Origin: Escherichia coli
Lineage (GTDB): Bacteria > Pseudomonadota > Gammaproteobacteria > Enterobacterales > Enterobacteriaceae
NCBI RefSeq assembly: GCF_003334385.1
Contig: NZ_QOWN01000002.1
DNA length: 64,000 bases
Reading direction: 5' to 3' (one strand)
Positions 7,534 to 7,706 of this stretch are shown here, piece after piece; positions within the stretch are counted from its first letter, which is position 1, and every line of letters starts with the position of its first letter. The position numbers and the translations under genes are program-made. The notes under the pieces were generated by a model. It made no database searches. It was not told the DNA's origin and saw only the letters and a list, made by a program, of their open reading frames with translations.

Positions 7534-7706
7534 GAAAAACCCGGCAGTAAATAATGTATTGAATATTACGTGGTCCGTGCTCAGAATATCCGTTCAACCT
7601 TATTGTGACAATGGTTAATTGTGACATTGACCTGAATTACGCTTTCATAAAAACATATTAACCAAATAAATATTTTTAATGGATATTTAAATTAAAGGAT
7701 ATATTC
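7534..7706. promoter_or_regulatory. Divergent yghS / yghT promoter region with direct repeats
   Basis: 173-bp AT-rich intergenic region between divergent genes; direct repeat attgtgaca(a/t)tgg...attgtgacattgacc read directly. Confidence 0.35.

Follow-up and report, generated by a model that had tools for sequence, protein, structure and literature searches.

With about even confidence, we read the 173-bp spacer between the divergent genes yghS and yghT of Escherichia coli as an ordinary divergent sigma-70 promoter region, in which the first copy of a short direct repeat would be the -35 box of the yghS-operon promoter and the repeat as such mostly a by-product of conventional promoter architecture. 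The repeat region is a real but ordinary promoter feature, with nothing surprising about it. More specifically, copy 1, read on the - strand, would provide the -35 hexamer TTGTCA contacted by RNA polymerase sigma-70 region 4, and copy 2 would lie at a position suited to the alpha-CTD or to an upstream factor, where it may be a weak site for CRP or another factor, or a second unit that has diverged since an old duplication of 16 bp. A separate weak promoter would transcribe yghT from within 18%-GC DNA. Net expression would be set mainly by H-NS silencing and by counter-silencing through SlyA and similar proteins, and not by a regulator dedicated to the repeats. What is shown directly are the sequence elements, how they are conserved and the published link to SlyA and H-NS; the start sites, the use of sigma-70 and the role of copy 2 we infer.

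The yghS/yghT locus and its neighbourhood

The spacer, as delimited by open reading frames and RefSeq annotation, occupies positions 7534-7706 of the window (the whole 64,000-nucleotide stretch of DNA analysed here) and has 29.5% GC; a preliminary description of this region had given its coordinates and gene setting correctly. It separates yghS (6820-7533, - strand, GTG start) from yghT (7707-8399, + strand), which encodes a P-loop protein paralogous to YghS and YghR. Because the spacer is identical, base for base, to positions 3133958-3134130 of E. coli K-12 MG1655 (NC_000913.3), the K-12 literature is directly applicable to it.

On the yghS side, seven co-directional genes occupy the - strand from 7533 down to 1062, with intergenic gaps of at most 45 bp. 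Their order is yghS, yghR, a full-length MOP-flippase gene yghQ, a hypothetical gene, a YtfJ-like gene (YtfJ family) and genes for an lptF-like and an lptG-like permease. No convincing terminator was found inside the cluster, and a strong hairpin terminator with a 16-bp stem ends it at 1030-1064. Given the small gaps, the lack of a convincing internal terminator and the hairpin at the end, the earlier term 'seven-gene operon' is a fair reading. This stem sits between the convergent serine palmitoyltransferase and lptG-like genes; a second strong hairpin terminator (8410-8438, 12-bp stem) lies between the convergent yghT and pitB, and both hairpins probably act as terminators in both directions.

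The region had also been proposed to control both the seven-gene operon and yghT. This is very probably the case, since the spacer is the only non-coding DNA upstream of both and carries promoter elements on both strands that recur across genera. The divergent yghS/yghT arrangement is kept at all the orthologous loci fetched, which come from four other Escherichia lineages, three Pseudocitrobacter, Shimwellia, Pluralibacter and two Erwinia species.

Two database observations concern the gene products. RefSeq gives both YghS and YghT the product name 'dTMP kinase'; the NCBIfam dTMP-kinase models TIGR00041 and NF005923, whose cut-offs are 83 and 193, give YghR and YghT only 26-32 bits, and YghS had no family match at E <= 1e-5. 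YghR, YghS and YghT are P-loop paralogues, and the product name looks like an over-call. Separately, a 262-bp contig assigned to Nocardioides malaquae (NZ_JADCSA010000562.1) matches the 3' end of E. coli yghT with 100% identity and almost certainly reflects contamination of that assembly with E. coli DNA.

Positions 1-7533 of the window, together with DNA to the left of it (L014, 1-5800), hold two convergent operons that make up a lipid-type island. The + strand operon, which ends near 1027, encodes a fatty acyl-AMP ligase (FAAL), an NAD-dependent epimerase/reductase, an acyl carrier protein and a serine palmitoyltransferase. The other operon is the seven-gene yghS cluster, the export-like half of the island in this and other non-K-12 strains, with its MOP flippase and LptF/LptG-like permeases; the three P-loop paralogues are counted with this half. 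In K-12, where yghQ is truncated, an IS5 and a deletion lie between this gene and yghO. In gene content, the island resembles bacterial sphingolipid synthesis plus export. The genes under the control of the spacer are of more interest than the repeats. The spacer itself would extend the E. coli map by a further divergent promoter that is uncharacterised, weakly expressed and H-NS-associated; knowledge of this promoter and of its inducing condition would be the practical route to identifying the lipid made by the island.

Promoter elements and their conservation

The only sigma-70-like match on the - strand of the spacer is TTGTCA-17-TATTCT (7611 to 7583), which agrees with the consensus at 9 of 12 positions. 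The consensus scan places the predicted -35 hexamer TTGTCA at 7606-7611, inside copy 1, and the predicted -10 hexamer TATTCT at 7583-7588, 17 bp away. Promoter-like matches are not enriched in the region (two, compared with 2.4 in shuffled sequences). From the hexamer positions, yghS transcription would start near 7576.

This promoter recurs in related genomes. The top-scoring - strand promoter is the same in five Escherichia lineages besides the window, in three Pseudocitrobacter genomes and in Shimwellia, taking the form TTGTCA-(16 or 17)-TAT(T/C)CT at -94 to -98 from the yghT ATG, while the bases between and around the hexamers have diverged. The -10 is present as an AGAATA block in Escherichia, Pseudocitrobacter and Pluralibacter and as AGGATA in Shimwellia. 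Copy 1 is invariant in 12 Escherichia sequences; in Pseudocitrobacter and Shimwellia it is represented by GTGACAAT, which extends the hexamer by one base at either end. A role of copy 1 as the -35 hexamer would by itself explain the conservation of this copy.

Some evidence counts against the assignment. TATTCT alone agrees with only 4 of 6 consensus positions; Pluralibacter keeps the yghS -10 but has lost TTGTCA, and Erwinia has lost both hexamers. There is also a rival block, TAATAT (7563-7568, - strand), which is conserved in a six-genus alignment and reads TAGCAT in Erwinia. Our reading of the spacer sequence found no acceptable -35 at 16-18 bp from this block, which may be an alternative -10 lacking a -35 or an element of the 5'-UTR or leader. 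Its conservation reaches even to Erwinia, and it could be the true -10, in which case all distances given here would shift by about 20 bp. The accessible parts of the supplements to Cappable-seq (PMC4782308), SMRT-Cappable-seq (PMC6131387) and Kim 2012 (PMC3415461) hold no entry for a yghS or yghT transcription start, and the hexamer assignments accordingly rest on consensus and conservation. As a separate observation, the Shimwellia spacer (L008, about 3870-3882) contains a perfect 12-bp palindrome, CCTGAATTCAGG, overlapping its predicted yghS -10 region; this is a near-palindrome in Pluralibacter, and E. coli is without it.

Variation within the genus was assessed in 12 Escherichia sequences, made up of the window, seven E. 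coli genomes sampled to as low as 98% identity and four GTDB species representatives under the label Escherichia. Variable sites number 4 of 90 in the yghS-proximal half of the spacer and 22 of 83 in the yghT-proximal half (p = 7e-5). Across 7582-7623, which spans the -10, the promoter spacer, the -35 and most of copy 2, a single site of 42 is variable; conservation of this segment was not significantly higher than that of flanking coding DNA (p = 0.10). The segment 7624-7706 is hypervariable, with 21-22 variable sites of 83 depending on how an inserted column is counted. A 1-bp insertion adjoins 7648 in three sampled strains, and TT at 7678-7679 is GG in most sampled sequences.

The yghT-proximal half (7633-7706, 17.6% GC), which is likely to be H-NS-bound DNA, carries the predicted yghT -10 hexamer TATTTT at 7671-7676 on the + strand. 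Its TATTT is invariant in all 12 aligned sequences of the cross-genus alignment. In Shimwellia, Pluralibacter and two Erwinia species, the yghT promoter consists of TTGAGG or TTGAAG, 17 bp and TATTTT; in Escherichia the -35 has decayed, and E. coli now has A/T-rich sequence in its place with TATTTT retained.

Published data on regulators bear on the same DNA. Overproduction of SlyA raises yghS 3.1-fold, and two genome-wide studies list the gene as H-NS-associated; the yghS/yghT spacer is not among the 10 promoters that were gel-shifted with SlyA in the same paper (PMC5797941). The spacer thus combines the features of H-NS-silenced, SlyA-responsive promoters, namely AT-rich DNA, H-NS association and SlyA induction, where the H-NS association is taken from published gene lists. 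Its one match to the SlyA-like pattern TTAN6TAA (7658-7669) is expected by chance in 18%-GC DNA. Searching the literature by gene name and b-number returned three regulatory mentions: the SlyA overproduction, a computational GalR match inside yghR and a FlhDC peak. The last is a weak genomic-SELEX peak assigned to the spacer, with the predicted FlhDC box inside yghT at 7838-7881 (PMC9962212). Apart from this peak, the searched literature named no other factor that binds the spacer.

Alternative readings of the repeat

The two copies of the exact 9-mer ATTGTGACA lie on the + strand at 7602-7610 (copy 1) and 7618-7626 (copy 2), with a 16-bp period from start to start and a 7-nt gap; their TGTGACA cores are 9 nt apart. 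The longer strings quoted in the preliminary description, attgtgacaatgg (7602-7614) and attgtgacattgacc (7618-7632), are both present, but the second follows the first after 3 nt (tta) and not after 8 nt as had been stated. Among dinucleotide shuffles of the spacer, 7.9% contain an exact direct repeat of 9 bp or more within 40 bp; among all 173-bp windows in the 64-kb sequence, 3.4% do. The repeat is not clearly beyond chance (3-8% per comparable 173-bp stretch) and is therefore, taken alone, no evidence of function.

Each copy is also nearly palindromic (ATTGT-G-ACAAT), a character that had gone unmentioned, and an 11-bp palindrome, ATTGTGACAAT, is found at copy 1. The pair can therefore equally be read as a 23-bp imperfect inverted repeat, TGTGACAAT-GGTTA-ATTGTGACA (7604-7626, either strand), whose arms agree at 8 of 9 positions. 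A structured RNA was considered and rejected: folding of the repeat hairpin is marginal for the + strand (z = -2.3), the - strand, which is read toward yghS, gives no significant fold (z = -0.4), and the hairpin lies upstream of both predicted starts. Rfam covariance models gave no match in the region, the best scores being 19-22 bits (E = 0.27-0.75), far under the gathering thresholds. Copy 2 was likewise rejected as the -35 of a second promoter, as a reading of the sequence offers only the -10 candidates AATAAG and CAATAA, which lack the key bases.

Copy 2 lies just upstream of the yghS promoter, at about -42 to -50 relative to the predicted start of yghS and, relative to that of yghT, at about -57 to -65. 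It would be without function if it were a chance resemblance or the neutral remnant of a 16-bp tandem duplication, which we consider possible though unlikely. The frequency given above means that such repeats are expected in a 64-kb window with dozens of spacers; a third exact ATTGTGACA indeed occurs within a coding region at 49374, and the copies, taken as 16-bp units, are identical at 11 of 16 positions. Copy 2 has also changed within the genus, with A7624 replaced by G in E. whittamii (core TGTGGCA) and two substitutions (7629 and 7632) just downstream in Escherichia sp. E1V33 that alter the flanking TTGACC. Against an absence of function, the ATTGTG of copy 2, its only part invariant within sampled Escherichia, is kept throughout, and Shimwellia retains TTGTGAC at the identical 16-bp period in otherwise diverged sequence. 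The Shimwellia copy also counts against our preferred reading of the repeat as a promoter by-product, which does not predict it. It is compatible with a further reading, in our view distinctly unlikely, in which the TTGTGAC pair, as the 23-bp imperfect palindrome, would be the operator of an unidentified transcription factor that represses or co-ordinates the yghS operon and yghT through its overlap with the yghS -35. Operators overlapping a -35 are a common repressor design, the region 7599-7623 is invariant in the 12 Escherichia sequences, GTGAC occurs twice at the 16-bp period in Shimwellia despite differing bases between and around, and the copies are palindromic both internally and jointly. 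However, a repeat within chance expectation gives this operator little to build on, and the TGTGGCA of E. whittamii would alter it. Copy 2 is degenerate in Pseudocitrobacter (AATGTCAG), which by YghT identity is nearer to E. coli than Shimwellia is (85-87% versus 80%), and absent in Pluralibacter and Erwinia. No conserved regulator gene was found beside the locus in other genera, where the neighbours are pitB, pstS, a nucleosidase-like gene and aphA, and the only binder named in the searched literature is FlhDC, with its weak peak and its box inside yghT. A 16-bp centre spacing corresponds neither to adjacent major grooves nor to two full turns. The preliminary description had likened the copies to sites of a dimeric or tandem-binding regulator, and tandem sites are not supported, given the 16-bp period, the -35 overlap and the patchy conservation. 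Tandem-binding response regulators have repeat periods of 10-11 bp or 21-22 bp; a 16-bp period, about 1.5 helical turns, places the copies on opposite faces of the DNA, which argues against tandem binding. An extended form of the operator reading, in which the pair (16-bp period, in Escherichia and Shimwellia) would let an as yet unassigned regulator switch on the yghS-yghR-flippase-LptFG-like operon and yghT together with the neighbouring serine-palmitoyltransferase operon, strikes us as a long shot; if true, a cryptic E. coli lipid island of sphingolipid-like type, partly lost in K-12, would be controlled from this point. A motif common to the island's two divergent spacers was sought and rejected, as copy 1 and the FAAL/yghO spacer share only a single 9-mer, TTATTGTGA, which is not significant (p = 0.15).

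The remaining alternative concerns CRP. The TGTGA pentamers that had been called CRP-like half-sites are real, and both CRP candidates match TGTGA-N6-TCACA at 5/5 plus 2/5 half-site positions, but only copy 2 scores plausibly. Scores were obtained with a symmetrised position weight matrix built from 19 classic CRP sites and are approximate. The motif scan that had been proposed gave 11.56 bits for the 22-mer at copy 2, AATTGTGACATTGACCTGAATT (7617-7638, either strand, centre 7627.5), the best score in the spacer and the second best among 63,979 window positions, and 4.69 bits for that at copy 1. The copy 2 score falls among those of the training sites (3.5-17.9 bits) and becomes 11.95 bits once TGTGAC-type training sites are left out. 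The top hit of the window, AAATGTGATGCAAGTCACTATG (13.5 bits, 62524-62545), falls inside an open reading frame (62144-62902, + strand) and is therefore of no use as a positive control for the matrix. On these scores, copy 2 could be a functional cAMP-CRP site activating one or both promoters, with copy 1 as a decoy half-site, a proposal that we find highly doubtful. Its left arm, AATTGTGACA, is the same as the malT and gal arms, whose right arms are also poor, and a similar 22-mer, TATTGTGAATGATATTTAATTT, scores 11.0 bits with the same matrix in the island's partner spacer, between the fatty acyl-AMP ligase gene and yghO (L014, 4423-4444). Against it, the right half-site is poor, and the score is equalled in 4% of shuffles of the AT-rich spacer (p about 0.04). 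The site is not conserved in the related genomes: E. whittamii has 8.55 bits, Escherichia sp. E1V33 has 6.57, and none of the other genera exceeds 5.6. Canonical CRP activation centres lie at -41.5, -61.5 and -71.5. The copy 2 centre, at -51.5 relative to the predicted start of yghS and at -55.5 relative to that of yghT, would be at a canonical distance from neither; that of the copy 1 site falls at -35.5 and -71.5, respectively. As two 22-bp sites 16 bp apart overlap, two CRP dimers could not occupy both copies together. In its main text, the genomic-SELEX paper on CRP mentions yghG and neither yghS nor yghT, which is a weak negative since the cut-off used there missed about half of the known sites (PMC3105977); no other CRP paper in the searched literature named either gene. 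CRP binding at copy 2 is possible, though the support for it is weak.

Comparison with known systems

Among the known systems compared, the tandem sites of response regulators share some features with the spacer. On the - strand, the copies read (A/T)TGTCAC and match 5 of 7 positions of the heptamer in the PhoB pho box, CTGTCAT-N4-CTGTCAT; as in pho promoters, one copy replaces or overlaps a -35, and a phosphate transporter gene, pitB, is next door. However, the same-face arrangement of OmpR/PhoB-type repeats is absent here, as the tandem sites of PhoB, OmpR, ArcA and CpxR have a 10-11-bp period and the spacer one of 16 bp. The hexamer in copy 1 also lies 17 bp from its -10, the distance of a normal sigma-70 promoter, where pho promoters have about 10 bp. 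The searched literature gave no link between these repeats and pho-type response regulators.

The MlrA operator at csgD, AAAATTGTACA-N12-TGTACAATTTT, shares the AATTGT..ACA arms and, like the spacer, sets two short palindromic cores some 1.5-2 turns apart. It differs in having TGTACA cores, where the spacer has TGTGACA with one extra base, and centres 18 bp apart instead of 16, and the likeness is a resemblance only. Sigma-E elements (GAAC/TCTGA), the pho box, the NrdR box, lac-operator half-sites, the MlrA operator and the DnaA box were each set aside on spacing or mismatches.

Compared with CRP sites of the galP1, malT and araBAD type, copy 2 has the same perfect left arm and a score in the lower-middle range of the classic sites. 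Unlike them, it is non-canonically placed and not conserved beyond E. coli proper, its companion TGTGA in copy 1 reaches only 4.7 bits, and the main text of the genomic-SELEX work on CRP mentions neither gene (PMC3105977).

A further comparison is with the divergent sigma-70 promoter spacers of E. coli operons that H-NS silences and SlyA or LeuO counter-silences, such as hlyE-C0299 and ssuE-elfA (PMC5797941). The yghS/yghT spacer differs in lying outside the set of promoters gel-shifted with SlyA and in having a TTAN6TAA match at chance level for 18%-GC DNA. Like those spacers, it is AT-rich and lies between divergent genes, carries this TTAN6TAA match at 7658-7669 and has weak core promoter elements, and in the same study yghS appears both in the SlyA-overproduction set and in the H-NS lists (PMC5797941).
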